A DNA stretch of 42,047 nt from an uncultured bacterium (GCA_963978095.1 CAXBQP010000028.1:1-42047), one strand, 5' to 3'. Shown: positions 6,080 to 41,524, numbered from the stretch's first letter. Notes: a model not told the origin generated them from the letters alone. Made by a program: numbers and translations.

Positions 6080-7141
6080 ATGACGACCCTACTCGTGACC
6101 GGTGGCGCCGGCTTCATCGGGTCGGCCCTCGTACGACAGTTGCTCGCCGAGTCCCATGTCGCGATCGCGAACGTGGACCTCCTGACGTATTCCGGGAATC
6201 TCGACTCGCTCGGCGCTTGCCTGGACGACCCGCGCCACCGATTGCACGCGGTCGATATTGCGGACGGGGAAGCGGTGCGCGAGGTCTTCGCGCGTGAGGC
6301 CCCGGCTGCCGTGCTGCATCTCGCGGCGGAATCGCACGTCGATCGCTCGATCGATGGACCGGCCGCGTTCGTGCGCACGAACCTCGTCGGGACGTTCACC
6401 ATGCTGGACGAAGCGACCCGGTACTGGCGTGGGCTGAGCGGTGCCAAGCGCGAGGAGTTCCGGTTCGTGCACGTGTCCACCGACGAAGTGTTCGGGTCGC
6501 TCGGCCAGACGGGCTACTTCAGCGAGACGACCGCCTACGATCCCAGCTCACCGTACTCCGCGAGCAAGGCGGGAGCCGATCACCTCGCGCGCGCGTGGCA
6601 TCGGACCTACGGCCTCCCCGTCATCGTGACGAACTGCTCGAACAACTACGGCCCGTGTCAGTTCCCCGAGAAGTTGATCCCGTTGATCATCCACAAGGCC
6701 GTGCGCGGTGAGCCGCTGCCGGTGTACGGCTCGGGGCAGCAGGTGCGGGACTGGCTTCACGTGGACGATCATGTGCGTGCGCTGCGGCTTGCGCTCGAGC
6801 GTGGAACCGTGGGGGAAAGCTACGCCTTCGGCGGCACGAATGAGCGGACGAACCTCGAAGTGGTGCACGCGGTGTGCGGACTGCTCGACGAACTGCGGCC
6901 CGATCCGCGCGGGACGTATGCGCGGTTGATCACGTTCGTCGCGGATCGACCGGGGCACGACCTGCGCTACGCGATCGACGCGACCAAGGCACGCACGCAA
7001 CTCGGGTGGGCCCCGGTCGAGACGTTCACGAGCGGCCTTCGGAAGACCGTCCAATGGTACCTCGAGCACGCCGGCTGGGTGGAACGCGTGATGCGGGGCG
7101 AATACCGCGGCGAGCGACTGGGAGCGCTGCAGAACTCGTGA
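6080..7141 (+). CDS. rmlB: dTDP-glucose 4,6-dehydratase
   Basis: [48 protein letters not shown]. Confidence 0.97.
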
Positions 7142-8013
7142 AGGGGATCATCCTGGCCGGCGGCACCGGGAGTCGCCTGTGGCCGATCACACGCGTCGTG
7201 AGCAAGCAACTGCTTCCGGTGTACGACAAACCGATGCTGTATTACCCGCTCTCGGTGCTGATGCTGGCAGGACTGCGGGAGATCCTCATCATCTCGACGC
7301 CCTCGGACCTGCCGAGGATGCAACAACTGCTCGGCGACGGTTCACGCTGGGGGCTCGCGTTCCGGTACGCGGAGCAGGCAGAGCCGAACGGGCTGGCCCA
7401 GGCGTTCGTGATCGGTCGCGAGTTCATCGGCAACGACAGTGTCTGCCTGATCCTCGGCGACAACATCTTCTACGGCGCCTCGCTGACGAACCACCTGCGA
7501 GACGCGGCGGCGCAGCAGACCGGTGCGACCGTATTCGGATATCGTGTCAGTGATCCGGAGCGGTACGGCGTGGCGGAGGTCGATCCCAGCGGATTGGTGC
7601 GTTCGATCGAGGAGAAGCCGAAGGTTCCGAAGTCGAACCTGGCAATCACCGGACTGTACTTCTACGACAACGATGTCGTGAGGATCGCAGCGGGGCTCAC
7701 GCCGTCGGCCCGTGGCGAATACGAGATCACGGACGTGAATCAGGCGTACCTGGCGAAAGGGGCACTACGCCTCAAGGTGCTCGGGCGGGGCACGGCGTGG
7801 CTTGACACCGGCACGCATGACTCGCTGCACGAGGCGTCAAGCTACGTGGCGACGATCGAGCGGCGGCAAGGGCTGAAGATCGCGTGTGTGGAGGAAATCG
7901 CCTTTCGGAATCGGTGGATCGATGCGGCGCGCCTGTTGGACCTCGCCTCGGAATTCAAGGCGAATCCCTACGGCGAGTATCTGCGGCGCATCGCGCGTGA
8001 GGACCGTGCATGA
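7138..8013 (+). CDS. rmlA: Glucose-1-phosphate thymidylyltransferase
   Basis: GTG start overlapping the rmlB stop (GTGA). [49 protein letters not shown]. Confidence 0.97.
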
Positions 8014-8576
8014 CGCGTGTCGAGCGGATGCCGATGCCCGGGCTGTTGCTGATCCGTCGCACGGTGATCGGCGATCTGCGCGGCTCGTTCAGCGAGCTGT
8101 GGCGTGAGGGAGAGTATCGCGCGACGGACATAGGTCCGTTCGTGCAGGAGAATGTGTCCGTGTCGCGGCAGCACGTCCTCCGAGGAATGCATCTGCAGAA
8201 CCCGGCGGGACACTCGAAGCTGGTGACGGTGGTGCGCGGGCGCGTCTGGGACGTGGTTGCCGACCTTCGCGTGGGATCGCCGACGTTCGGGAAGTGGCAC
8301 GGGCAGGAGCTCTCCGACGAGAATGGCTGCCAGTTGTACATCCCCGTCGGATTCGCGCACGGGTTCGTGACCTTGTCGCCGGAGGCGGTCTTCGTGTACC
8401 AGATGGGGGGCTACTACGCGCCGCAACACGAAATCGCGGTGGCGTGGAACGACCCGGCGCTCGCCATCACGTGGCCGATCACGGACCCCATCCTCGCCGA
8501 GAAGGACCGGGGGGCGCCCACGCTTGATCGGATCCCGCGCGAGCGGCTGCCGGTCTACGACCCTTCGGCGGGGTAG
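8010..8576 (+). CDS. rmlC: dTDP-4-dehydrorhamnose 3,5-epimerase
   Basis: [54 protein letters not shown] overlap with rmlA. Confidence 0.95.
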
Positions 8577-15113: not shown

Positions 15114-16649
15114 TCAGGGCACCACGCGGGGCCACTTGGCGTCCAGGCGCGTCATGATGGCGGCAAAGGCGTCGATCCCGTCCCAGAGATTCTGAAGGCG
15201 GAGGTTCTCGTCCTTCGCGTGCTGGTTGTCGTCATGGTTCGCGATCGGAAAGACGATCAGCGGCACGTGGAGCGTACGCTCGAACACGCTGGTCGGGAGC
15301 GACCCTCCCATGGTCGGGAGGCGCAGGACGGGCTTGCCGAGCAGTTCGTCGAGTGTGCCGGTGAGGGCGATTGCGACCGGTTCGTCCTGGCGCACGCGGG
15401 AGGCTTCGTCGCCGCCGCCCCAGGTGACGCGGACGACCTTGGGGTGGGCGCGCCGCTCGTCGTCCGTCGCTGCGGCGTGCGTGACGTACCACCCCGTGGC
15501 CTTCAGGTGCGCTTCGACGAGTGCGCGAATGCGCTCGGGGCTCTGCTTGGGTACGAGCCGGAAGTCGATCGATGCCTTGGCTTCTGTCGCGATCGCGTTG
15601 GCGGCGAGTCCTTCCACTTGGCCCACTTTCAGCCCGCGGATGTTGAGCCCCGGCAGCATGATGCGTTCGGCGAGCAGGGCTCCGTCGGCTTCGGTGGCGC
15701 CGAGCAGGAGTTCGTGTCGGAGGGCGGCGTCGGTGTTGGGGAGCGCGCGCACCGCTGCGAGTTCCTCCGGTGTCGGTGGGACGACGTCGTCGTAGAAGTC
15801 CTTGATCAGGATGCGCCCGTCGGCATTGCGCAGCGATGTCACGAGTTCGGCGACGAGGATCCCCGGGTTCGGCACCCAGTTGCCGTAGTGGCCGCTATGC
15901 ATGGCGCGGGCCGGGCCGTAGACCGTGAGTTCAAGCCCCATGGTGCCGCGGACGCCGTAGACCACTTGGAGTTGGCGGCTGGCGTGCACGGGACTGTCGC
16001 AGAACAGCCACGCGTCCGCCCGGAGCAGACTCGCGTTGCGCTGCAGGAGATCGGCCAGATGGGCGGAGTTGGATTCTTCCTCTCCTTCGAAGAAGAACTT
16101 GAGATTGACGGTCGGTCGCTGGCCGGTGGCCTTCAGCGCGTCGAGCGCGTTCAGGATGGCGGCGATGGGGGCTTTGTCGTCGCCGGCGCCGCGCGCAAAG
16201 ATGCGGGCCTCGGGGTTCAGTCGGCCGGCGGTGGGGAAGGGGATGTCGACCCATTCCGCGCCGCGTGATTCGCGGAGCACGGGGGAGAAGGGGGCGCCGC
16301 CCTTCCACTCCTTGGGCTCGACCGGTTGGCCATCGTAGTGCGCATAGAGGACGATCGTGCGGGTGGCGCCGGGCGCGGTGAGTTCGCCATACACCACCGG
16401 GGGCCAGGTTCCGTTGCGCAGGAGCCGCGCGTCGACGCCGCGTCGTGCGAGCATCGCGACGATCTCGGTGGCGTTGCGCCGCAGGTTGAGGGAATCGGCG
16501 GCGACATTCGGGATGCGCAGGAACTCCGCGAATTCCTGGACGATCTGGGGCTCGCGGGCTTCGCGCCACTGACGGATCTGGTCGCGGGCGGACTGCCCAG
16601 CGAGAGCGAGGGGGAGCGAGAGGCCGAGGAGCACCGCACGAGCGCGCAT
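15114..16649 (-). CDS. Secreted M20/M25/M40 metallopeptidase
   Basis: YAHYDGQP, ARGAGDDK, FEGEEE, HSGHYG, NHDDNQH. Real start is MRARAVLL; the upstream extension in the ORF track is antisense shadow. Confidence 0.93.
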   Translation of the reverse strand: MRARAVLLGLSLPLALAGQSARDQIRQWREAREPQIVQEFAEFLRIPNVAADSLNLRRNATEIVAMLARRGVDARLLRNGTWPPVVYGELTAPGATRTIVLYAHYDGQPVEPKEWKGGAPFSPVLRESRGAEWVDIPFPTAGRLNPEARIFARGAGDDKAPIAAILNALDALKATGQRPTVNLKFFFEGEEESNSAHLADLLQRNASLLRADAWLFCDSPVHASRQLQVVYGVRGTMGLELTVYGPARAMHSGHYGNWVPNPGILVAELVTSLRNADGRILIKDFYDDVVPPTPEELAAVRALPNTDAALRHELLLGATEADGALLAERIMLPGLNIRGLKVGQVEGLAANAIATEAKASIDFRLVPKQSPERIRALVEAHLKATGWYVTHAAATDDERRAHPKVVRVTWGGGDEASRVRQDEPVAIALTGTLDELLGKPVLRLPTMGGSLPTSVFERTLHVPLIVFPIANHDDNQHAKDENLRLQNLWDGIDAFAAIMTRLDAKWPRVVP

Positions 16650-16796
16650 GGAGAATCCCGTCTGGAGGTGTGCCGTGAAGATGCCCTCTGGGGGAGCCCG
16701 TAAACAAGCGTCGCGGCGTGGCGGGACGTGCCGTGAGCGAGGGGGCGGCCGTGGGGTGTGGTTGCCGAAGGGGGAACCGCGCGCGAAATTTTCCCT

Positions 16797-17945
16797 ATGG
16801 CTCCCAAAGTGCTGGTCAGTGGCACGTTCGACCTCCTGCATAGCGGGCATGTGGCCTTCCTCACCGAGGCGGCGTCGTACGGGACGCTGCATGTGTGCGT
16901 GGGGCGCGATGAAGTGGTGCGCGAGCTCAAGGGGCGGTATCCCGTCAACTCCGAGATCGAACGGCAGTATCTGATCGCCGCGCTCAAGTGCGTGCATGAG
17001 TGCCGGATTTCGCGTGGCGATGGACTGCTGGATTTCGAGCCGGAGTTGCGCGAGCTCCGCCCGGACATTCTGGTGGTGAACACCGACGGTGCCCACGAGT
17101 CCAAAGCCGCATTGTGCCGAGCACTCGGCGTGCGCTACGTGGTGCTCGAGCGGGTTCCTGCCGGCGCCTTGCCGGCGCGCAGCACGACGACGCTCCGGAC
17201 GGAATGCGTGATTCCGTATCGGATCGACCTCGCGGGGGGCTGGCTCGACCAGCCCTGGGTCTCCAAGCACCACCCCGGGGCGGTGCTGACGATTTCCATC
17301 GAGCCCACGCACATGTTCAACGAGCGCAGCGGCATGGCCACGAGCACGCGGAAGAAGGCGATTGCGCTCTGGTGCAATCAGCTGCCCATGGGAGATCCGG
17401 AGCAGATGGCGAAGGTCCTGTTCAGCTACGAGAACCCGCCCGGCACGGTGGAGATCGCGGGGTCGCAGGATGCCATCGGGATCGTGATGCCCGGATTGAA
17501 TCGGTCGGAGTACGCGGGGGGGCATTGGCCGCGCGCGATCACGAGCGATGGTGATGAGTCGCGTCTGGCCTGGTTGGAAGCGCGACTGTGGCTCGTGCCT
17601 CTCGACCCTCGGGAGTCGGGGTACCGGGTGCTCTCGGACACGAATGTCAGTGTGGCCGGTGCCACGGCGCTCGCCAACGCGGCGGACGCCTGTTGGCACG
17701 GGATCCAATCCATGGACGCTGCGCGGACCGGGGCTGCCATGGCAGCCTCGTATGACGCGCAGATTGCGATGTTCCCACACATGGCGGCTCGCGATGTGCC
17801 CGCTATGATCGAACGATACCGCACGACCGCGCTCGGCTGGAAGCTCAGTGGGGCCGGCGGCGGCGGATATCTCACGCTGTTCTCGGAGCAGCCCATCACA
17901 GGAGCTTTGCGCGTGAAGATCCGCCGTCGGCATGCGGGGTTGTGA
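16797..17945 (+). CDS. Cytidylyltransferase-like (HIGH) nucleotidyltransferase fused to a GHMP sugar kinase
   Basis: N-terminal GTFDLLHSGH and RSTT. C-terminal PYRIDLAGG, SGMATST, GSQD, GWKLSGAGGGGY. Confidence 0.88.
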   Translation: MAPKVLVSGTFDLLHSGHVAFLTEAASYGTLHVCVGRDEVVRELKGRYPVNSEIERQYLIAALKCVHECRISRGDGLLDFEPELRELRPDILVVNTDGAHESKAALCRALGVRYVVLERVPAGALPARSTTTLRTECVIPYRIDLAGGWLDQPWVSKHHPGAVLTISIEPTHMFNERSGMATSTRKKAIALWCNQLPMGDPEQMAKVLFSYENPPGTVEIAGSQDAIGIVMPGLNRSEYAGGHWPRAITSDGDESRLAWLEARLWLVPLDPRESGYRVLSDTNVSVAGATALANAADACWHGIQSMDAARTGAAMAASYDAQIAMFPHMAARDVPAMIERYRTTALGWKLSGAGGGGYLTLFSEQPITGALRVKIRRRHAGL

Positions 17946-19264
17946 TGGCCGTGTCTCCCCGCTGGTTCGAGCGACACACTGGATATCAGCCCGCTGACCG
18001 CGCGCGTCGACGTGCATTCGTGATGGTCACGACGCTCTTCTTCTTCTGGGCGTTCGTCCACAACATCAACGGCACATTGATCCCACACTTGCGGAAGGCG
18101 CTGCTGTTGACCGACACGCAGTCGGCGTTGATCGACGTGGCGATCTACCTGGCCTACTTCCTCGCCGCGCTTCCGGCGGGGATGGTGATCGCGCGGCGTG
18201 GATACCGGTTCACGATCATCGCCGGGCTGTCGCTCTTTGCGCTGGGCGCGGTGCTGTTCGTTCCTGCCGCACTCTCCCGGACGTACGGCGTGTTCCTCCT
18301 GGCGTTGTTCGTCTTCGGATTCGGGGCGGCGTTCCTCGAGACCGTCGCCAATCCGTACATCTCCGGCCTGGGCGATCGTGAGCACTCAACGTCCCGCCTC
18401 AACTTCGCGCAGTCGTTCAATGGCGTGGGTGCCGTGCTCACGCCGCTCATCGGGAGCGGGTTGATCCTGTCGGGTGTCACCTACTCGGATGCGCAGCTCG
18501 CGGCGTTCACGCCCGCGCAGCTGGACGCCTATCTGCAAGGGGAGGCGCGCAGCGTGGTGCTGCCGTACCTGGTGCTCGCCGCGGCGATCGTCGCGATGAT
18601 CGTCCTGTTCGTGCGTCAGCCGATTCCGGAGGTCGGCGGGATCTCGGGGGACGAGGGTGGCCTCCCCTGGGGGTCGCTGATGCGGCATCCGCGCCTCATC
18701 CTCGCGGTGATCGCGCAGTTCTTCTACGTGGGGGCGCAGGTGGGCGTCGGCAGCTTCTTCGTCCGCTTCTCGCAGCATGCGGCCGGCATGTCCGACAAGC
18801 AGGCCGGCTTCCTCTGGGGGAGTCTGGCGATGGTCGGGTTCATGCTCGGGCGTTTCGCCGGAACGGCGGCCATGCGAACGGTGGCGCCGCCTCGACTGTT
18901 GGCGATCGTCGCCGTGGCCGCTGCGGCGGCACTGACGGGCGCGATCAACCTGACCGGGGTTCCCGCTGTCGCGCTGCTGATGACCGTCCCGTTCTTCATG
19001 TCGATCATGTTCCCGACGATCTTCGACCTCGGGATCACGGGGACGGGCTCCGTGGCAAAGCTCGGATCCTCGCTGATCATCATGGCGATCGTCGGTGGGG
19101 CCGTGATTCCGGTGGCGATGGGGCGCATCTCCGATGCGACGCACGATATCCAGCGCGCCTTCTACGTTCCCGTGGCCTGTTTCGCAGTCGTTGCGCTGTT
19201 CGGGCTGTACGCGGCGCGTGTGACGAGCGATGCACCGGATGATGCCGTGGAGAGGGCCGCCTGA
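17945..19264 (+). CDS. fucP: L-fucose:H+ symporter (FucP/GluP family MFS)
   Basis: LFFFWAF..N.N..LIP, FLETVANPY, RLNFAQSFNG, AQFFYVGAQV, MSIMFPTIF, IMAIVGGA. TGATG overlap with the upstream gene. Confidence 0.88.
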   Translation: MAVSPRWFERHTGYQPADRARRRAFVMVTTLFFFWAFVHNINGTLIPHLRKALLLTDTQSALIDVAIYLAYFLAALPAGMVIARRGYRFTIIAGLSLFALGAVLFVPAALSRTYGVFLLALFVFGFGAAFLETVANPYISGLGDREHSTSRLNFAQSFNGVGAVLTPLIGSGLILSGVTYSDAQLAAFTPAQLDAYLQGEARSVVLPYLVLAAAIVAMIVLFVRQPIPEVGGISGDEGGLPWGSLMRHPRLILAVIAQFFYVGAQVGVGSFFVRFSQHAAGMSDKQAGFLWGSLAMVGFMLGRFAGTAAMRTVAPPRLLAIVAVAAAAALTGAINLTGVPAVALLMTVPFFMSIMFPTIFDLGITGTGSVAKLGSSLIIMAIVGGAVIPVAMGRISDATHDIQRAFYVPVACFAVVALFGLYAARVTSDAPDDAVERAA

Positions 19265-19587
19265 TGCCGCGGTTCGTGCTCGCACTGGACCTGGTGGAAG
19301 ACCCTCGGCTGATCGCCGAGTATGAGGCGCACCATCAGGCCGTCTGGCCGGACATCCAGGCCAGCATCCGCGACGCCGGGATCACGTCGCTCCAGATCTT
19401 CCGACTCGAGAATCGACTGATGATGATCCTCGAAGCCGGTGATGGTTTCAGCTTCGAGGCCAAGGCTGCGGCCGACGCGGCGAATCCCGCGGTGCAGCGG
19501 TGGGAACAACTCATGTGGACGTACCAGCGTGCGATTCCGGGCGGTGCGCCCGGTGAGAAGTGGCGGCTCATGACACGGATTTATTAG
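19264..19587 (+). CDS. L-rhamnose/L-fucose mutarotase (RhaM family)
   Basis: IAEYEAHHQAVWP..GI...IF, NPAVQRWEQLM, W..M..I. TGATG overlap with fucP. Confidence 0.9.
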   Translation: MPRFVLALDLVEDPRLIAEYEAHHQAVWPDIQASIRDAGITSLQIFRLENRLMMILEAGDGFSFEAKAAADAANPAVQRWEQLMWTYQRAIPGGAPGEKWRLMTRIY

Positions 19588-19618
19588 GTCGACGGCTACG
19601 ATTGGAGGCACCACGTCC

Positions 19619-19873
19619 ATGCTGACTCATCTCGCCCCCGCGATGCACGCGCTGTTCGTGCCGGGGAGTCTCACCGATGCGACGGTCACGCGTGACCCGC
19701 TGGTGGTGTGCACGGTATGCACCGCACGCTCCGCGGCGGAACCGGGCCTACGGGCTCACATCCGTGCTTACGTCGGCGCCGCGGTCGAGGGCATTGCCTG
19801 GGCTGGTGAGAACGTGCGGCAGCGGAAGGCGGGAGACGCGTCCCCACATAGCCCTAACGCGCTCCTGCGATGA
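19619..19873 (+). CDS. Possible small hypothetical protein
   Basis: GGAGG 10 nt upstream of ATG. Stop overlaps the next ATG (ATGA). One CxxC. Codon usage is unconvincing. Confidence 0.3.
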   Translation: MLTHLAPAMHALFVPGSLTDATVTRDPLVVCTVCTARSAAEPGLRAHIRAYVGAAVEGIAWAGENVRQRKAGDASPHSPNALLR

Positions 19874-21456
19874 CGGCGTTCGACTATGACTGGCTGATCG
19901 TCGGGTCCGGCTTCGGTGGGAGCGTGTCGGCGCTGCGTCTGAGCGAGAAAGGGTATCGGGTCGGTGTGCTCGAATGCGGCCGGCGTTTTGCCGACGACGA
20001 GTATGCCGCCACCACGTGGGATCTGCGTCGGTTCCTCTGGGCCCCGGCACTCGGGATGCGGGGAATCCTGCGCCTGACCCCCTTCAAGGACATTTTCATC
20101 GCGAGCGGATCCGCAGTGGGCGGCGGCAGCGCCGTCTATGCCAACACGCTCTACCGGGCCAAGCCGGCCTTCTTCGAGAATCCGCAGTGGCACGGCCTGG
20201 AGAACTGGGCGGAATCGCTGGCGCCCCACTACGCGACCGCCGAACGCATGCTCGGGGTCGCGACGGTTCCGTTCGCGAGTGGAGGCCAGGCACTGCTCCA
20301 GGAGGTCGGCGCCCATTTCGGAAAGCGGGAGACTTTCACGCGCACGCCGGTCGGCGTCTTCTTCGGTGCGGCGGGCCAGACGGTGGCGGATCCGTACTTC
20401 GGCGGCGAGGGGCCGGACCGCACCGGCTGCACTCGCTGCGGCGCCTGCATGGTGGGATGCCGGGTCGGGGCCAAGAACACTCTGCTCAAGAACTATCTGT
20501 GGTTCGCGGAGAAGCGGGGCGCCGAGGTGATCGCGGAGCGCGAGGTGACGGATATCGTCCCGATCGGCGCGCCCGACGGCAGTGATGGGTATCGCATCAC
20601 CACGCAGCGCCCGGGCGCCTGGTTCGCCAAAGCGCGGCGCACTTTCACGGCGCGCGGTGTGGTGATCGCCGCGGGGGCGCTCGGGACGAACCGCCTCCTC
20701 CTCCGGTGCAAGACCAATGGCTCGCTCCCTCGACTGAGCGATCGCCTGGGGGAACTCGTGCGCACCAACAGCGAGAGCATCCTGGCCATCACCTTGCCGG
20801 ATGACTCATCACGCCCGTGGAACGACGTGGCCATCAGTGCCAGCGTGCATCCCAACGCCGATACGCACATCGAGTTCTGCACGTATGGCCAGCACGGCGA
20901 CTTCATGAGTTTCCTGCTCGCGCCGCTGACGGGGCAGGGCACGCGGCTCACACGACCCCTGATGATGGTGGGGAGCATCGTGCGTCACCCGCTCCGGTTC
21001 CTGCGCGCGCGATTCCCGGTGGGCTGGAGTCGGAAAACGTTGGTGATCCTCGTGATGCAGTCGAGCGACAACGCGATCGCCTTCCGCCCGAAGCGCGGGA
21101 TCTTCGGATTCGGGCTCCGCACCGAACAGCATGCCGAAAAGCCGAATCCGACCTTCATCCCGGAGGCGAATGCCGCGGCGGAGTTTCTCGCGGCGCACAC
21201 CGGGGGAATCGCCTCCAGCGGCGTGCTCGAGGCCGCGGCGAACATCCCCACCACGGCGCACATCCTGGGCGGTGCTCCGATCGGGCGCGATGCGACGACC
21301 GGAGTGGTGGACAGCCGCCACCGGGCATTCGGCTATGAGAATTTCATGATTTGCGACGGCTCGGCGATGCCCGCCAACCCAGGAGTGAATCCATCGCTCA
21401 CCATCACCGCGCTGGCGGAGCATGCGATGGCCCATGTGCCGGAGGCGCCGCGCTGA
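19870..21456 (+). CDS. GMC oxidoreductase, ChoD/cholesterol-oxidase-like
   Basis: GSGFGGSV, VGGGSAVYANT, CTRCGACMVGC, KNTL.KNYL, TAHILGG, GVNPSLTI. Confidence 0.9.
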   Translation: MTAFDYDWLIVGSGFGGSVSALRLSEKGYRVGVLECGRRFADDEYAATTWDLRRFLWAPALGMRGILRLTPFKDIFIASGSAVGGGSAVYANTLYRAKPAFFENPQWHGLENWAESLAPHYATAERMLGVATVPFASGGQALLQEVGAHFGKRETFTRTPVGVFFGAAGQTVADPYFGGEGPDRTGCTRCGACMVGCRVGAKNTLLKNYLWFAEKRGAEVIAEREVTDIVPIGAPDGSDGYRITTQRPGAWFAKARRTFTARGVVIAAGALGTNRLLLRCKTNGSLPRLSDRLGELVRTNSESILAITLPDDSSRPWNDVAISASVHPNADTHIEFCTYGQHGDFMSFLLAPLTGQGTRLTRPLMMVGSIVRHPLRFLRARFPVGWSRKTLVILVMQSSDNAIAFRPKRGIFGFGLRTEQHAEKPNPTFIPEANAAAEFLAAHTGGIASSGVLEAAANIPTTAHILGGAPIGRDATTGVVDSRHRAFGYENFMICDGSAMPANPGVNPSLTITALAEHAMAHVPEAPR

Positions 21457-21493: not shown

Positions 21494-22246
21494 CTACTGC
21501 GCCAGATAGCCGCCGTCGACCGGGTAGTACGCGCCGGTGGCGAACGAGGCCTTGTCCGACGCGAGCCACGTGACCAGTTCCGCGACCTCTGAGGGCTCGC
21601 CGAGGCGCCCCATCGGATGCATGCCCGCGAGCCGTCCCATGATTTCCGACGGGATACTCTCGAGCAACGGTGTGTTGATCACGCCCGGACCGACGCAGTT
21701 GATCCGCACGTTCCTGGCGGCGTACTCGAGCGCCGCGTTCCGGGTGAGTCCGATCACGCCGTGCTTCGCCGCCGCATACGCGGGTGACCCGCGGAATCCG
21801 ACCGCGCCCAGGATCGAAGCCATGTTGATGATCGCCCCTCCGCCGGCGGCCACGATCGCGGGAAGTTGCGCGCGCATGCCATAGAAGACGCCGGAGAGGT
21901 TCACCGCGATGACCTGGTGCCATCCGTCCAGCGGATAGTCGGCCGTGAATGCCGCCGGGCCGCTGATCCCCGCATTGTTCACGGCGAGGTGCAGTGCGCC
22001 GTAGGCTTCGACCGCACGGGCAACCAAGGCGACGCCGTCGGCTGGGTTGGAGGTATCGCAACGCACCGCGATGGCGCGTCCTCCCTGGGCGTGCACGCGC
22101 GCGAGGGTTTCGGCATTGCCGGCGTCGTCGATGTCGGCGATGACAAGGTGCGCCCCTTCGCGCGTGAACTGTTCGGCTACGGCACGACCGATCCCCGAGC
22201 CCGCACCGGTAACGATCGCGACTTTGCCTGCCAGAATTCCGGACAT
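21494..22246 (-). CDS. Classical SDR oxidoreductase, probably NAD(H)-dependent
   Basis: TGAGSGIG, IADID, NNAGI, YAAAKHG, VDGG. Confidence 0.95.
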   Translation of the reverse strand: MSGILAGKVAIVTGAGSGIGRAVAEQFTREGAHLVIADIDDAGNAETLARVHAQGGRAIAVRCDTSNPADGVALVARAVEAYGALHLAVNNAGISGPAAFTADYPLDGWHQVIAVNLSGVFYGMRAQLPAIVAAGGGAIINMASILGAVGFRGSPAYAAAKHGVIGLTRNAALEYAARNVRINCVGPGVINTPLLESIPSEIMGRLAGMHPMGRLGEPSEVAELVTWLASDKASFATGAYYPVDGGYLAQ

Positions 22247-25732: not shown

Positions 25733-26791
25733 ATGCTCCGAAATCGTTCCGCTACGCTGTTGCTCGTCGTCACTGGTTCGGTCGCGCTGGCCATTGCCGC
25801 GTGCTCGGAGTCCGCCACTTCCCCCGCGGCCCCGGCGCGTTTCCAGGTCGCCGGCGCGAACGCGGTCGCCTCCATCGAAAGTGAGGGGCGGAGCTCGCGC
25901 TTCAAATTTCACGAGCCGCGGGATGGCGCACAGGTCTCCAGTGAGGCGAGCGCCCAGGCGACCACCAGCACGACCTCGTCGAGTGCGGGGGCGGGGATCA
26001 GCTTCCACGGCGGCGCGGTGCTGCAGGCCGCGACGAACGTCGTCGCGATCTACTGGGCGAGCACCCCGATCTTCGTGAACGGGCCGCAGCCCGGAACGGG
26101 ACTCGGGACGGCCGACGGGTCCATCGTCGGCTTCTTCCTGCGGAACCTCGGGGGATCCCCCTGGTCCAACATCAACACGACCTACACCAGCGCGACCGGT
26201 GCCAAGATCGCCAACGTCGTGAAGTACACGAGCTATTGGGCGAACGCGACCAACGTGCCCGCTGCGGGTTCCTCGGTCACGGACGCGGCGATCCTCACCA
26301 TGCTCCAGAGCGGCTTCACCGCGGGCACTCTCAAGTACGACTCGAGCACGGTGTACACGGTCTTCACCGGCCCGAAGGTCAATCTGGGTGGAGGCGCGGG
26401 CACAAGCTACTGTGCATACCACTCGGCCGCGAAGCTCACGATCGGCGGCGTGTCGCGCACCGTGCTCTACACCGCGCAGCCGTACGCGGCATCGTGGCCG
26501 TCGGCCTGCACCGCCACGAACGTCTCGGCGAATGGCGACCTCGGTGCCGACACCCAAGTCAATTTGATCGCGCACGAACTCACCGAGACGACCACGGACC
26601 CGCTCGGCAATGCCTGGTACGATGCGGTCGGCCGGGAGAACGCCGACAAGTGCGCGTGGAACTTCGGCAGCACGTCCAGCAATGCGCTGAGCAAGAACAT
26701 GAAGTACAACGTGGTGCTGGGCGGGAAGTACTTCCTTGTCCAGACGAACTGGCAGAACTACGGTAGCGGGGGTTGCGTCATCAAGTTCTGA
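25733..26791 (+). CDS. EXORDIUM/Phosphate-induced protein 1 (Phi-1)-like lipoprotein
   Basis: Lipobox AIAAC. FHGGAVL, YCAYHS, IAHELTETTTDP.GNAWY, ENADKC, FLVQTNW. Confidence 0.85.
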   Translation: MLRNRSATLLLVVTGSVALAIAACSESATSPAAPARFQVAGANAVASIESEGRSSRFKFHEPRDGAQVSSEASAQATTSTTSSSAGAGISFHGGAVLQAATNVVAIYWASTPIFVNGPQPGTGLGTADGSIVGFFLRNLGGSPWSNINTTYTSATGAKIANVVKYTSYWANATNVPAAGSSVTDAAILTMLQSGFTAGTLKYDSSTVYTVFTGPKVNLGGGAGTSYCAYHSAAKLTIGGVSRTVLYTAQPYAASWPSACTATNVSANGDLGADTQVNLIAHELTETTTDPLGNAWYDAVGRENADKCAWNFGSTSSNALSKNMKYNVVLGGKYFLVQTNWQNYGSGGCVIKF

Positions 26792-38514: not shown

Positions 38515-39606
38515 TTATTGATATTGGATGTAGAGGGGGCGCGGATGCAGCTTCATGATCTCGGGGATCGTCGTGCGCGGGTTGTCGTTGCGCGGCTTGT
38601 AGAACTGCTTCCAGCCGACGAACTGCACCGGCTCAGCCTTGATCCACTTGCGGAAGGTGTTCCGCTTGAGCCATGGCGGGCCGAAACCGTCCATGTCCAT
38701 GACGATCTGCACGCGCGGGTCGAGCTTGATCTGATGGGAGTTGGTGACGCCGCGCTGCGTGAACCGATGCACCACCAGCACTTTGGGCGGGAGTTTGAAC
38801 TGGGTGACGACGTCCGCCAGCATCGTGGCGGCGTAGTTCACGTCCGCGGCATCGAAGCTTCCGATCTTCTTGCCCGGCACGGTTCCATCCTTCAGTGAGA
38901 ACTCCGGGTCGATGCCCAGGTGGAAGTTGGGGCGTTGCAGGAAGCGCACCAGCCGCGGCAGCTCCTCCTGCAGGGTCGCGTGTCCGACCTGGACATCGAG
39001 GAACACGAGCGCGTTCCGCTTGGCGGCCCATCCCGCGACCTTCTCGATCAGCGACGAATCCATGCGCAGGCGATACTTGCCATCCTTGCCGGGGGCGCCT
39101 TGGGCGACCACGGCAATCAGGTGGAGCGCAGGCTGGACGGGCGTCGATGGATCCGCCTTGGTCCAGGCCGCGACCTCGGCGTCCAGCATCTTCAGCATCT
39201 CGTTCGGCTCGTACTCGCCGAGCACACCCATCTTCTTGGACAGTGGATTGCCGTAGTAGGCCACGATCCGCTTGCCGGGAAGGATGGATCCCGGCAGGGG
39301 ATCGGGTCCCTTGACCGGCCATTTCGCGTCGAGGATCGAGTCTTGGCGCGCTTGGGCGATCGAATCCGCATCGGCCGGCGGCTTGAGCGCGCCAACGGAT
39401 TTCTTGCCCTTGCCGGTGCCCGCGCCTTTCGTGCGAGCGCCCTGCTTTTGAGCGGTTTTCTTCGGGGCACGGGCCGTGCTGTCGCCCGACGGCGCGGGCT
39501 TGGCTGGCTTGGCGGACGAATCTCGCTGGCCGGCCGCCGGCGAGGCGGCCACGATCAATACGAAGAGCGCGCGCCGGAGCGCGCGCAAAGCTGCGGAAGA
39601 GGGCAC
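38515..39606 (-). CDS. Conserved-looking exported hypothetical protein
   Basis: Signal peptide, Lys-rich linker, globular domain RIVAYYGNP...LDVQVG...HLGIDPEF...MDGFG. Confidence 0.85.
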   Translation of the reverse strand: MPSSAALRALRRALFVLIVAASPAAGQRDSSAKPAKPAPSGDSTARAPKKTAQKQGARTKGAGTGKGKKSVGALKPPADADSIAQARQDSILDAKWPVKGPDPLPGSILPGKRIVAYYGNPLSKKMGVLGEYEPNEMLKMLDAEVAAWTKADPSTPVQPALHLIAVVAQGAPGKDGKYRLRMDSSLIEKVAGWAAKRNALVFLDVQVGHATLQEELPRLVRFLQRPNFHLGIDPEFSLKDGTVPGKKIGSFDAADVNYAATMLADVVTQFKLPPKVLVVHRFTQRGVTNSHQIKLDPRVQIVMDMDGFGPPWLKRNTFRKWIKAEPVQFVGWKQFYKPRNDNPRTTIPEIMKLHPRPLYIQYQ

Positions 39607-39706: not shown

Positions 39707-41461
39707 TCAGCGCCCGATGATTTCGATGCGATGGTCCGCCCGTACCACGTACTGTCCAGCGACCTCGATCTCGAGTTGCACCACGTAGGCGCCTTTGGAC
39801 AACGTGGAGATGTCGAGTTGCAGGGCCCGCGGCGAGGTGGTGGACCCACGCGCCGACATGTCCTGCACGGTGATGCTGACGGGCGTCGCCTCGCGCACCA
39901 CGCGAAGGGTCTTCGCTTGCCGGCGCAGAAAACCGCTCTCCTCCACTTCGCGCACGACCGTGAGCGAGACTTTCATGGGTTCACCCGCAGGTTCGGTGCC
40001 ATAGGCTTCCCAATAGACGCCGAGCTTTTCCCCGGCGCGCACCTTCTCCGTCGTCAACGCGTGCGGGGCGACCTCCTCCACGGTCGTCGGGAAGTCGCCG
40101 TACGGTTCGTAAAAGAGCAAGTCGGACACCGTCACGCGCGTCCCGACGGCGAACGGCGGCGCCATCCCGTAGCGCGCACGCCGCACCGCCGCGCGATCCG
40201 GCGACCACACCTCGGCGCTCATGATCAACGGCGCCCATGGCGCTTTGGCGGTGATGACGTCCGTGCGCGGCGCTTTCGTGCGGACGGTGCGGAAGGCGTG
40301 CGTCCCCGTCGCCGGGGACACGACCAAGGCGGCGGTGATGGCCGTGCTGTCGAGCTCCGGCATGTTCCGCGCATCGTAGGCCATCACGACGAGCGCGCTG
40401 TCGCCGCGGCGGAACATCGCTTTCTGATGCACCAGCGGCTTCAGCGTCTTGGCGTATGGCGGCGAGTACCGGCCGACGACCGGCGGGAGTTGCACCGCCC
40501 AGTCGGTCGAGTCGGAGATCGTGGGATTGTTCAGCACGTAGCCCGGCGGAATGAACCGATATGCGGGGGACGGCTCGTGGCCGACCGTGTTGAACTCGCC
40601 GGTCCGCGGGTCACCGCGCCCGCGCGACCACGCCCGGGGCCAGCCGAACCGGAGCAGGAGTTCGCGTTCGTCGTCGTCGAAGCCGAACTGATACACGCCG
40701 GCGGCGTCACGCATCATCTCGACGAACGTCATGCGTGCGTACCATTCGGTGCGCGAGTCGTTGCCCTCCATGGAGTAGAGGACCTTGGCCAGGAACCAGA
40801 CATGGTCCTCGTAGGCGATCCGTTCCTTGCTGGCGCACGGGAGCCGGCGGTAGGCTTGCCGTGTGTCGTCGTCGATCAGGTAGCCCAAGTCGCGCCACAC
40901 GCAGCGATCGCGGACCAGCATCTTGGCGATCCCCACCTCGTACACGCTGTCGGCAGCCTTGTACCGGCCGAGCATGTGGAGGGCGAAGCCGGTCATGATG
41001 TCGCAGTACCAGCCACCGACTTTGCACTCGGTGGCGGCGTTGAGCGCGTCGGCGCGACGATCCGCCTCGGTGAGATACCGCACCCGTTGCGCGACGAGCC
41101 AGCGCTCCTCGGGCGCGACGCGCGCGAGCGAGTCCAGCAGTGCGATCAGCACGGCACGCTTCGCCGTGATCTCGGCGGGTTCGGGCGGTGCGGCGGCGGC
41201 CCGCTCGTCGTACCAGTAGCAGAATCGACCGACCCGCTCATCGCACTGACTCGGCGAGCGTCCGGTGGACTGGAAGGGAAGGTGCAATCGCCGAAAGAGC
41301 TCGAAGTCGCGCTGGGCGCGTCGGCCGAGGTCATAGGGCGACAGAGAGTCCTGAGGGGATGCCGGAGGGACGGTACCCCCTCGGACGATCTGTGCCGACG
41401 CCGTCGGCGCGAGGCCGGCAAGCAGGAACAGGATTGGGAGCAGTCGACGGTGCATGGTCAT
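39707..41461 (-). CDS. Secreted GWxTD-like protein with TPR-like N-terminus and Ig-like C-terminus
   Basis: Signal peptide. EGNDSRTEWYAR...DDERELLLRFGWP. C-terminal LSKGAYVVQLEI. Confidence 0.75.
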   Translation of the reverse strand: MTMHRRLLPILFLLAGLAPTASAQIVRGGTVPPASPQDSLSPYDLGRRAQRDFELFRRLHLPFQSTGRSPSQCDERVGRFCYWYDERAAAAPPEPAEITAKRAVLIALLDSLARVAPEERWLVAQRVRYLTEADRRADALNAATECKVGGWYCDIMTGFALHMLGRYKAADSVYEVGIAKMLVRDRCVWRDLGYLIDDDTRQAYRRLPCASKERIAYEDHVWFLAKVLYSMEGNDSRTEWYARMTFVEMMRDAAGVYQFGFDDDERELLLRFGWPRAWSRGRGDPRTGEFNTVGHEPSPAYRFIPPGYVLNNPTISDSTDWAVQLPPVVGRYSPPYAKTLKPLVHQKAMFRRGDSALVVMAYDARNMPELDSTAITAALVVSPATGTHAFRTVRTKAPRTDVITAKAPWAPLIMSAEVWSPDRAAVRRARYGMAPPFAVGTRVTVSDLLFYEPYGDFPTTVEEVAPHALTTEKVRAGEKLGVYWEAYGTEPAGEPMKVSLTVVREVEESGFLRRQAKTLRVVREATPVSITVQDMSARGSTTSPRALQLDISTLSKGAYVVQLEIEVAGQYVVRADHRIEIIGR

Positions 41462-41524
41462 ATATACCCCTGACAACGATAATGGCGCCTACCCAGCCGC
41501 GTAGGCCCCCGATAATTTCGTATC

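Follow-up and report, generated by a model that had tools for sequence, protein, structure and literature searches.

A compact nucleotidyltransferase-kinase fusion, a FucP permease and a mutarotase form a probable L-fucose salvage operon in an uncultured bacterium

Many surface glycans of bacteria, and the mucins of hosts, carry L-fucose. To our knowledge, FKP of Bacteroides, a protein of 949 amino acids (aa), is the only characterised bacterial fucose salvage enzyme. Here we analyse a compact three-gene unit that probably serves the same end. It lies on the plus strand at positions 16797 to 19587 of a 42,047-nucleotide (nt) contig from an uncultured bacterium (GCA_963978095.1, CAXBQP010000028.1), and consists of a gene for a fused nucleotidyltransferase and kinase, a fucP gene and a mutarotase gene; the whole contig is called the window below. 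The structural work on FKP gives the frame for the comparison. FKP contacts beta-L-fucose-1-phosphate through Arg592, Trp599, Asp601, Thr602, Gly759, Gln761, Asp762 and Ala900, and it holds the sugar in the beta configuration, with the Trp stacked on C4-C5-C6 of fucose, the Asp bound to O3 and O4, and Asp762 as the general base (Lin 2025, PMC11982464).

A second protein is also relevant here. Lakey et al. (Gut Microbes 2026, PMC13313206) put forward Akkermansia muciniphila Amuc_1591 as a previously uncharacterised fucose-nucleotidyltransferase. In their description, an adenylyl/cytidylyltransferase domain at the N-terminus is followed by a flexible linker and by a C-terminal domain that can be superposed on FKP fucokinase 9IIP and keeps the fucose-1-phosphate contact residues. 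Suppressors of D-arabinose toxicity in Akkermansia fell in Amuc_1591 in 12 of 12 cases, L-fucose or mucin rescued growth, and the protein was tied to L-fucose scavenging for glycan synthesis (PMC13313206). An earlier note on our stretch, written by a model from the sequence alone, had called the three genes a candidate undescribed deoxyhexose salvage operon. The word "undescribed" is too strong in view of Amuc_1591, which is described with the same design, and the operon is instead an unusually clean context for a widespread family already proposed in print.

Open reading frames (ORFs) and direct reading of the sequence bear out the layout given in that note, three genes joined by TGATG stop/start overlaps. 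The first gene (16797..17945, plus strand) encodes P0001, a fused L-fucokinase-like/nucleotidyltransferase protein of 382 aa recognised by its PF01467 and FKP fucokinase matches. It overlaps the gene for P0002, a 439-aa FucP-family permease of the major facilitator superfamily (17945..19264, plus strand; TIGR00885 fucP and Escherichia coli FucP 3o7q), at 17943..17947. This in turn overlaps the gene for P0003, a 107-aa RhaM-family protein and probable L-fucose mutarotase (19264..19587, plus strand; PF05336 and 7byu/7byw), at 19262..19266, again on the plus strand. A start of P0001 at GTG 16758 was ruled out in favour of ATG 16797, because homologues of full length (382 aa) span the whole protein (100%). 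Third-position GC of the three genes is 0.79-0.86, similar to the remaining genes of the window. A scan of 16500-20000 gave no promoter-like sites and three terminator-like sites, all within fucP.

We consider it likely that the three genes form a self-contained L-fucose salvage (activation) operon, and that its nucleotide sugar would most likely be GDP-L-fucose. In the proposed route, GH29 alpha-L-fucosidases, of which this genome has two genes, would probably release free L-fucose outside the cell, FucP would import it, and the mutarotase would speed its alpha-to-beta interconversion. The C-terminal GHMP domain of P0001 would phosphorylate beta-L-fucose at O1, with Asp225 as general base and with Arg142 and the RSGM..STR loop holding the phosphates. 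The N-terminal HIGH-fold domain would then join beta-L-fucose-1-phosphate and a nucleoside triphosphate (NTP) to give the nucleoside diphosphate (NDP) sugar NDP-L-fucose, most likely GDP-L-fucose, for glycan synthesis. GH29 fucosidases, as retaining enzymes, set the alpha anomer free, and FKP holds the beta sugar, so that a mutarotase beside or fused to the kinase makes sense. All of the catalytic steps are inferred here, as are the sugar and the reasoning on anomers, and the nucleotide is the least firmly grounded of these. If the pathway is read correctly, P0001 would be an analogue in function of Bacteroides FKP, with 382 aa in place of 949. The chain of import, anomer conversion, 1-phosphorylation and nucleotide activation suggested in the earlier note finds support in active-site conservation, gene neighbourhoods, RhaM fusions and the lack of detectable fucose catabolism in this genome.

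P0001 is built of two domains. Residues 1-133 (16797..17195, plus strand) form a HIGH-type, cytidylyltransferase-fold nucleotidyltransferase domain with HSGH at 15-18 and RSTT at 128-131, and PF01467 matches residues 7-97 with 35.1 bits against a cut-off of 21. The pyrophosphorylase domain of Fkp, PF07959, is of a different fold and has no match in P0001. Residues 136-382 (17202..17942, plus strand) form a shortened GHMP sugar-1-kinase domain, recognised from invariant residues in two alignments (A1 and A2) and from mapping onto FKP; the C-terminus matches FKP fucokinase through NF009948 (residues 301-368) and through PDB entries 9iip and 5yys. When P0001 is aligned with 26 homologues at 60-86% identity, HSGH and RSTT are invariant in 26 of 26, and so are the C-domain segments PxRxDxAGGWLDQP (140-153), RSGM..STR (177-185), GSQD (222-225) and GWKLSGAGGGGY (347-358), the last of which includes A353-GGGG / GAGGGG. 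The key C-domain residues (R142, W149, D151, Q152, the RSGM..STR loop, G222-S-Q224-D225 and A353-GGGG) are invariant in both A1 and A2, and homologues of 374-396 aa align with P0001 from end to end.

Structural comparison gives the same division. The AlphaFold2 (AF2) model of P0001 has a mean predicted local distance difference test score of 79.7 and a predicted template modelling score of 0.61, with low confidence at the linker (124-139) and at loop 173-191. Its N-domain superposes on TagD 2b7l, 3glv, the Fom1 CyTase domain and HldC 5xf2 (Z 15.9-17.0, root-mean-square deviation (rmsd) 1.7-2.0), and the best scores are those of TagD and 3glv (Z 17.0, rmsd 1.7-1.8). The C-domain scores Z 19.8 with the WcbL heptokinase (232 of 345 WcbL residues), Z 17.6 and 17.3 with FKP (21-22% identity over 226-237 residues), and Z 17.6 with galactokinase 1s4e; the heptose-1-phosphate-kinase-like 3k85, at Z 15.7, does not stand above galactokinases and mevalonate kinases (up to Z 17.6). 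The fold (WcbL, 1s4e), the motif II phosphate loop and the GAGGGG of motif III place the C-domain in the GHMP superfamily; a full-size GHMP N-terminal lobe with adenine-binding elements is absent from it.

The fucose site of FKP can be followed in P0001 nearly residue by residue. HMMER alignments place R142, W149, D151, Q152 and A353 on FKP Arg592, Trp599, Asp601, Thr602 and Ala900, and the G-x-Q-D motif (G222, Q224, D225) has the spacing of FKP Gly759, Gln761 and Asp762 and aligns with GxQDQ of 3k85. Seven of the eight FKP contacts with fucose-1-phosphate are identical in P0001 and invariant in its family, the eighth, Thr602, being replaced by an invariant Q152. Motif I and the motif II phosphate loop are about 26 residues apart (D151-R177) versus about 110 in FKP (Asp601 to loop 712-720). 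The remaining motif spacings agree between the two proteins (37 versus 39 and 128 versus 138).

The permease and the mutarotase both belong to fucose-related families. P0002 reaches 309.6 bits with TIGR00885, the FucP equivalog model (cut-off 280.4), and matches E. coli FucP 3o7q at E = 2e-75 over residues 23-425. FucP Glu135 is kept as E132, and Asp46, which is reportedly assigned a role in proton coupling in the FucP structure paper, aligns with Gly43. This site is Gly or Pro in the six closest FucP that neighbour a fusion gene and Asp in loci labelled Bacteroidales or Bacteroidota, and the Gly/Pro subgroup may couple transport differently. P0003 matches PF05336 (RhaM) with 95.4 bits (cut-off 23.4). 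Among solved structures it is most similar to 7byu/7byw, labelled "L-fucose mutarotase" (E = 1.5e-7), and less so to E. coli YiiL/RhaM (3.4e-4), and it scores 23.9 bits with TIGR02625 (YiiL_rotase), the E. coli-type L-rhamnose mutarotase model, where the cut-off is 99.6. P0003 is on these grounds a probable L-fucose mutarotase. The solved relative, FucM (7BYU/7BYW), is a RhaM-family L-fucose mutarotase of the non-phosphorylating pathway (Watanabe et al. 2020, cited in PMC11199699).

What else does this genome do with fucose? At 91% completeness, it gave no FucI, no L-fucose dehydrogenase over the cut-off and no fuconolactonase in family searches. Searches by tblastn with single representatives, which are weak, found no FGGY fuculokinase, aldolase or lactonase; L-fuconate dehydratase and 2-keto-3-deoxyfuconate (KDF) aldolase were not searched for. 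The best match to Fcl has 60 bits against a cut-off of 500, and no Fkp-type PF07959 domain was found (other GHMP kinases were not searched for). Within the reach of these searches, the genome could import and activate fucose, and would neither catabolise it nor make it de novo. The genome does have gmd, on contig C33:5877-7800 (locus L081), with about 422 bits (422.7). Directly after it comes a short-chain dehydrogenase/reductase (SDR) that is not Fcl (best model LegB-like, 119 bits; Fcl, 32 bits) and is possibly of the Rmd type, giving GDP-D-rhamnose. Because no recognisable fcl is present, the operon could be the only source of activated L-fucose in this genome.

The fusion itself is widespread. 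Among 8,000 scored candidates, 7,935 match at E <= 0.001, which makes at least 7,935 clusters at 90% identity, and 189 clusters at 50% identity match at E <= 1e-30. By record title, carriers include Bacteroidota, Verrucomicrobiota (L003, L004, L077), Acidobacteriota, Chloroflexota and Ignavibacteria-type bacteria, and the same three-gene order recurs in a Vicinamibacterales (Acidobacteriota) locus. We examined neighbourhoods with one genome per species, confirming 525 loci and analysing the best 80, mostly from Bacteroidota. Neighbours were counted by tblastn (E <= 1e-10, at least half of the query covered) in a median of 8 kb on each side; some contigs were shorter, so the counts are lower bounds.

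FucP is a neighbour at 18 of the 80 loci (directly adjacent at 15) and RhaM at 14 (adjacent at 7); 23 loci have one or the other and 9 have both. A GH29 fucosidase is found at 15 loci (adjacent at 3), an SDR of the L-fucose dehydrogenase type at 10 (adjacent at 7), a class II aldolase at 6 and a FAA-type hydrolase at 5 (neither ever adjacent), and FucI, a FGGY kinase and an Amidohydrolase_2 protein of the fuconolactonase type at 4 each, with only the kinase directly adjacent (2 loci) and the other two at none. NCBIfam classes the representative of these SDRs as an L-fucose dehydrogenase (NF052481, 375.6 bits against a cut-off of 300); for the amidohydrolase representative the best model is L-fucono-1,5-lactonase, at 254.9 bits, below the cut-off of 400. 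Leaving the SDR uncounted, 38 loci have at least one of FucP, RhaM, GH29, FucI, FGGY kinase, aldolase, FAA-type hydrolase or amidohydrolase. The survey of fucP/rhaM co-occurrence proposed as a check in the earlier note thus comes out in favour of a link, with FucP or RhaM at 23 of 80 loci and any fucose-linked gene at 38. The fusion elsewhere often lies within fucose catabolic clusters (FucI/K/A or the non-phosphorylating pathway), so the absence of catabolic neighbours characterises this genome and not the family.

Two other kinds of neighbour recur. A divergent gene for a GT-C-like membrane protein of about 480 aa, whose sole match is a weak one to PF03901 (Alg9-like), lies 150-750 nt upstream of the fusion in nine loci labelled Saprospiraceae, Lewinellaceae or Bacteroidota (L002, L005, L010, L011, L012, L018, L022, L026 and L029). 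Such a protein may act at the glycan end of the pathway; alternatively, its position may reflect no more than lineage synteny. MarR and acyl-CoA dehydrogenase genes stand beside the fusion in 10-11 loci, mostly labelled Chitinophagaceae, and have no obvious fucose link.

The neighbours also bear on the identity of the sugar. The substrate could be another fucose-like compound (L-galactose, D-arabinose or another 6-deoxy-L-hexose), with "FucP" and "RhaM" as mere family labels, and the replacement of FKP Thr602 by Gln152 would fit such a shift, as would the apparent acceptance of D-arabinose by the Akkermansia protein (PMC13313206). We judge this very unlikely. The genes beside the fusion are, in one phylum after another, those of L-fucose in particular (GH29, FucI, a fuconolactonase-type protein and an L-fucose dehydrogenase that passes its cut-off). 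Two sugar contacts, the Trp stacked on C4-C5-C6 and the Asp bound to O3 and O4, are invariant, and among solved structures it is an L-fucose mutarotase that P0003 most resembles. Between L-fucose and L-rhamnose, both named in the earlier note, the analysis favours L-fucose.

Fused forms of the protein are a further line of evidence, with the caution that they are metagenome predictions in which gene-calling errors are possible. RhaM, transferase and kinase are joined in one chain in 8 of the best 120 matches. Single cluster representatives have the kinase domain fused to Gmd (P0339), to a GT2 glycosyltransferase (P0283) or to a DXD glycosyltransferase (P0305), and one has the whole fusion joined to a PNP_UDP-type domain (P0260). 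The family further includes kinase domains that stand alone, as proteins of about 240 aa. Separately, tandem cytidylyltransferase-like domains occur in P0252, P0313, P0328 and P0348, the kinase domain being kept in P0252; the arrangement resembles that of ethanolamine-phosphate cytidylyltransferase (ECT).

These fusions also help to judge a Leloir-like catabolic route, in which NDP-fucose would be an intermediate toward central metabolism and not a glycan donor. Mutarotase, GHMP kinase and nucleotidyltransferase do mirror GalM, GalK and GalT, and no other fucose catabolic route was detected in this genome. Of the readings considered here it is nonetheless the least probable, a very remote one, given that the operon has no epimerase or other onward enzyme in or near it, that the fusion elsewhere stands beside complete FucI/K/A or non-phosphorylating pathways, where catabolism is already covered, and that the fusion partners are glycosyltransferases and Gmd.

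Which nucleotide the enzyme would use is the least firm part of the proposal. Genes for gmd and fcl adjoin the fusion on its own strand in 3 of the 80 loci (L053, L064 and L068), for example in the orders gmd-fcl-fusion-rhaM-fucP (L064) and rhaM-fusion-fucP-gmd-fcl (L068). This clustering, together with the Gmd fusion, suggests that the product joins the GDP-L-fucose pool. The same pathway could run with another nucleotide, the HIGH-fold domain using ATP or CTP and giving ADP- or CDP-L-fucose for dedicated transferases. The closest folds and models are indeed ATP or CTP enzymes (HldC at 35% identity, TagD, the Fom1 CyTase domain and ECT), the best NCBIfam match is rfaE domain II, an adenylyltransferase, and an extended-SDR nucleotide-sugar enzyme lies near the fusion in L055, L073 and L077. 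We regard this as unlikely, though a serious contender: the gmd-fcl loci and the Gmd fusion tie the family to the GDP-L-fucose pool, our search of the literature library turned up no paper on ADP-fucose, on CDP-fucose or on an enzyme that would transfer an adenylyl or cytidylyl group to fucose-1-phosphate, and known fucosyltransferases use GDP-fucose (Lin 2025, PMC11982464). The unusual CDP- or ADP-sugar put forward in the earlier note has in this way gained no positive evidence, and GDP seems to us roughly twice as probable as ADP or CDP. If ADP- or CDP-L-fucose were made, it would be a nucleotide sugar not known in biology.

The extended SDR is encoded on the fusion strand about 200 nt upstream in L055 and L073 and about 2 kb downstream in L077. 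It is unassigned: Fcl, the model that fits it best, gives 94-118 bits, far below the cut-off of 500. In these lineages the enzyme may act further on the NDP-sugar that the fusion would make.

The operon is sparsely distributed around our genome. Only 1 of 60 relatives has the fusion, a congener (G020) with the whole operon at 80-84% identity, which suggests that the operon is an acquired accessory module. Within the genus, GH29 genes occur in 19 of 30 genomes, a tally that takes in the unpublished genome G006. Genes resembling fcl were found in 10 of 30 genomes (283-480 bits, all below the 500-bit cut-off) and in 0 of the 2 fusion carriers, too few to weigh. Fkp was found in none of 5 genomes with Bacteroidales-labelled fusion loci.

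Several results weigh against a salvage operon that ends in GDP-L-fucose. The first concerns the kinase: about 85 residues are missing between motif I and the phosphate loop (aa 152-177, window 17250-17330). The corresponding FKP stretch holds four of its five modelled adenine contacts, Asp644, Met645, Pro666 and Ile669 (PMC11982464). Because that segment is missing, ATP binding would have to differ from that of FKP, or kinase activity could be lost. P0001 itself also falls below the Pfam GHMP models PF00288 and PF08544, the latter being recorded for some close homologues. On the transferase side, the nearest named NCBIfam model is TIGR02199 (heptose-1-phosphate adenylyltransferase, rfaE domain II), at 55.4 bits against a cut-off of 181.5, and we know of no GTP user among the HIGH-fold transferases, which are known with ATP or CTP. 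As for context, no fucose gene was found within the available sequence at 42 of the 80 loci. Searches for GT10/GT11 fucosyltransferases had no match in this genome, and the controls likewise matched in no genome, which leaves this result without weight. Among 151 sampled genomes of the order of G061 (Bacteroidales-labelled, holding locus L037), 23 have the fusion, 17 have Fkp and 1 has both, against about 2.6 expected by chance, a trend and not a clear mutual exclusion. Finally, the likeness of P0001 to Amuc_1591, the same two-domain design in about 380 aa, is one of description and not of sequence alignment (PMC13313206); a search seeded with a Verrucomicrobiota member had none named Akkermansia among the 120 matches listed.

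Some of these points would also suit a C-domain that is no kinase at all. Shortened as it is, the domain could serve to bind a sugar or a sugar phosphate; phosphorylation would then happen elsewhere, or the protein would have a sensing or regulatory role. The lack of a counterpart to the FKP adenine-binding segment and of a Pfam GHMP match would be explained, AF2 confidence is low over the motif II loop (residues 173-191), and Lakey et al. (PMC13313206) come near this idea when they speak of a "fucose-nucleotidyltransferase". Its chance is slight, in our view marginally below that of a different sugar. The general base D225, Arg142, the phosphate loop and GAGGGG are invariant in 26 of 26 homologues, a PF07959 domain, and with it an FKP-like enzyme, was not found in this genome (as above, other GHMP kinases were not searched for), and all 12 Akkermansia suppressors of D-arabinose toxicity fell in one gene (PMC13313206). 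Tentatively, and with the chances still well against it, P0001 may be something other than a small copy of FKP, either a maker of ADP- or CDP-L-fucose or the first GTP-using sugar-1-phosphate transferase of the HIGH fold, with a new way of binding the phosphoryl donor. Such binding, by a GHMP domain lacking the adenine segment, would possibly be helped by the fused transferase domain.

An L-fucose salvage operon, which remains our preferred reading, would matter beyond this genome. Fkp is found in few lineages (17 of 151 sampled genomes in the order of G061), and the fusion family of about 380 aa is far more widespread. For this reason the fusion may be the main route by which bacteria of the environment and the gut reuse fucose in glycans of their own. 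If verified, so compact an enzyme would be useful for the chemoenzymatic synthesis of fucose nucleotide sugars.

The genes that follow the operon appear to be separate from it. A small ORF of 84 aa with no family matches (19619-19873, plus strand) begins 31 nt past the operon and overlaps, through ATGA, a gene for a GMC oxidoreductase of 528 aa (19870-21456, plus strand), downstream of which lies an SDR gene on the minus strand (21494-22246). The best model for the GMC oxidoreductase is cholesterol oxidase ChoxAB (590 bits, cut-off 850). We rejected the GMC oxidoreductase, the small ORF and an M20 peptidase as operon members, since 0 of the 80 homologous loci have them; the GMC protein is moreover cholesterol-oxidase-like, and about 2 kb separates its gene from rhaM in the sole operon-bearing congener. 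The adjacent GMC oxidoreductase is unrelated to operon function. The gene survey of the window found no isomerase, aldolase or dehydratase adjacent to the operon, as had been claimed; the claim went too far in including dehydrogenases, given the GMC oxidoreductase 31 nt on and the SDR on the minus strand. Six congeners, one of them the operon carrier G020, keep the GMC oxidoreductase at 71-89% identity, and a seventh has a weaker, partial match. The flanks in these congeners share no other gene of the window, and for that reason a boundary of operon insertion cannot be drawn.

Further upstream, about 9-10 kb from the operon, the window encodes a dTDP-glucose 4,6-dehydratase (6080-7141, plus strand; TIGR01181, 448.9 bits) and, after an unassigned gap, a dTDP-4-dehydrorhamnose 3,5-epimerase (8010-8576, plus strand; TIGR01221, 190.3 bits). 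With these two genes present, L-rhamnose would be made de novo in this genome. Downstream, a 352-aa protein (25733-26791, plus strand) has a Phi_1 domain (phosphate-induced protein 1, EXORDIUM-like), of a family known mainly from plants. A DNA methylase gene (PF01555; 37627-38484, plus strand) lies beside two large ORFs without Pfam matches on the minus strand (38515-39606 and 39707-41476), and the three may form a restriction-modification or defence locus.

How, then, does P0001 compare with the described systems? Like FKP (B. fragilis; PDB 5YYS, 9IIP, 9IIT), it has an N-terminal transferase and a C-terminal GHMP fucokinase domain, and the overall reaction proposed for it, L-fucose to NDP-L-fucose, is the same. 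Unlike FKP, it has 382 aa rather than 949, its transferase is PF01467, a non-homologous fold, without PF07959, and its kinase is about 85 residues shorter between motifs I and II. Amuc_1591 differs in its setting: its gene is in a transcription unit with murJ, whereas that of P0001 is with fucP and a mutarotase gene, and in the available part of their paper Lakey et al. assign Amuc_1591 neither kinase activity nor a nucleotide (PMC13313206). HldE domain II and HldC share the HIGH fold with the N-domain of P0001 and act on a beta-sugar-1-phosphate, HldC 5xf2 having 35% identity with it over about 117 residues (Z 15.9). HldE is also, like P0001, a transferase fused to a kinase of its own pathway. 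The HldE kinase is a ribokinase-fold heptose-7-phosphate kinase and not a GHMP kinase; P0001 stays below the TIGR02199 cut-off, and its context is fucose rather than heptose. FucM, for its part, belongs to the same Pfam family as P0003, PF05336. FucM works in a catabolic pathway, whereas the partner of P0003 would be an activating enzyme, one to which the mutarotase is fused in some organisms.

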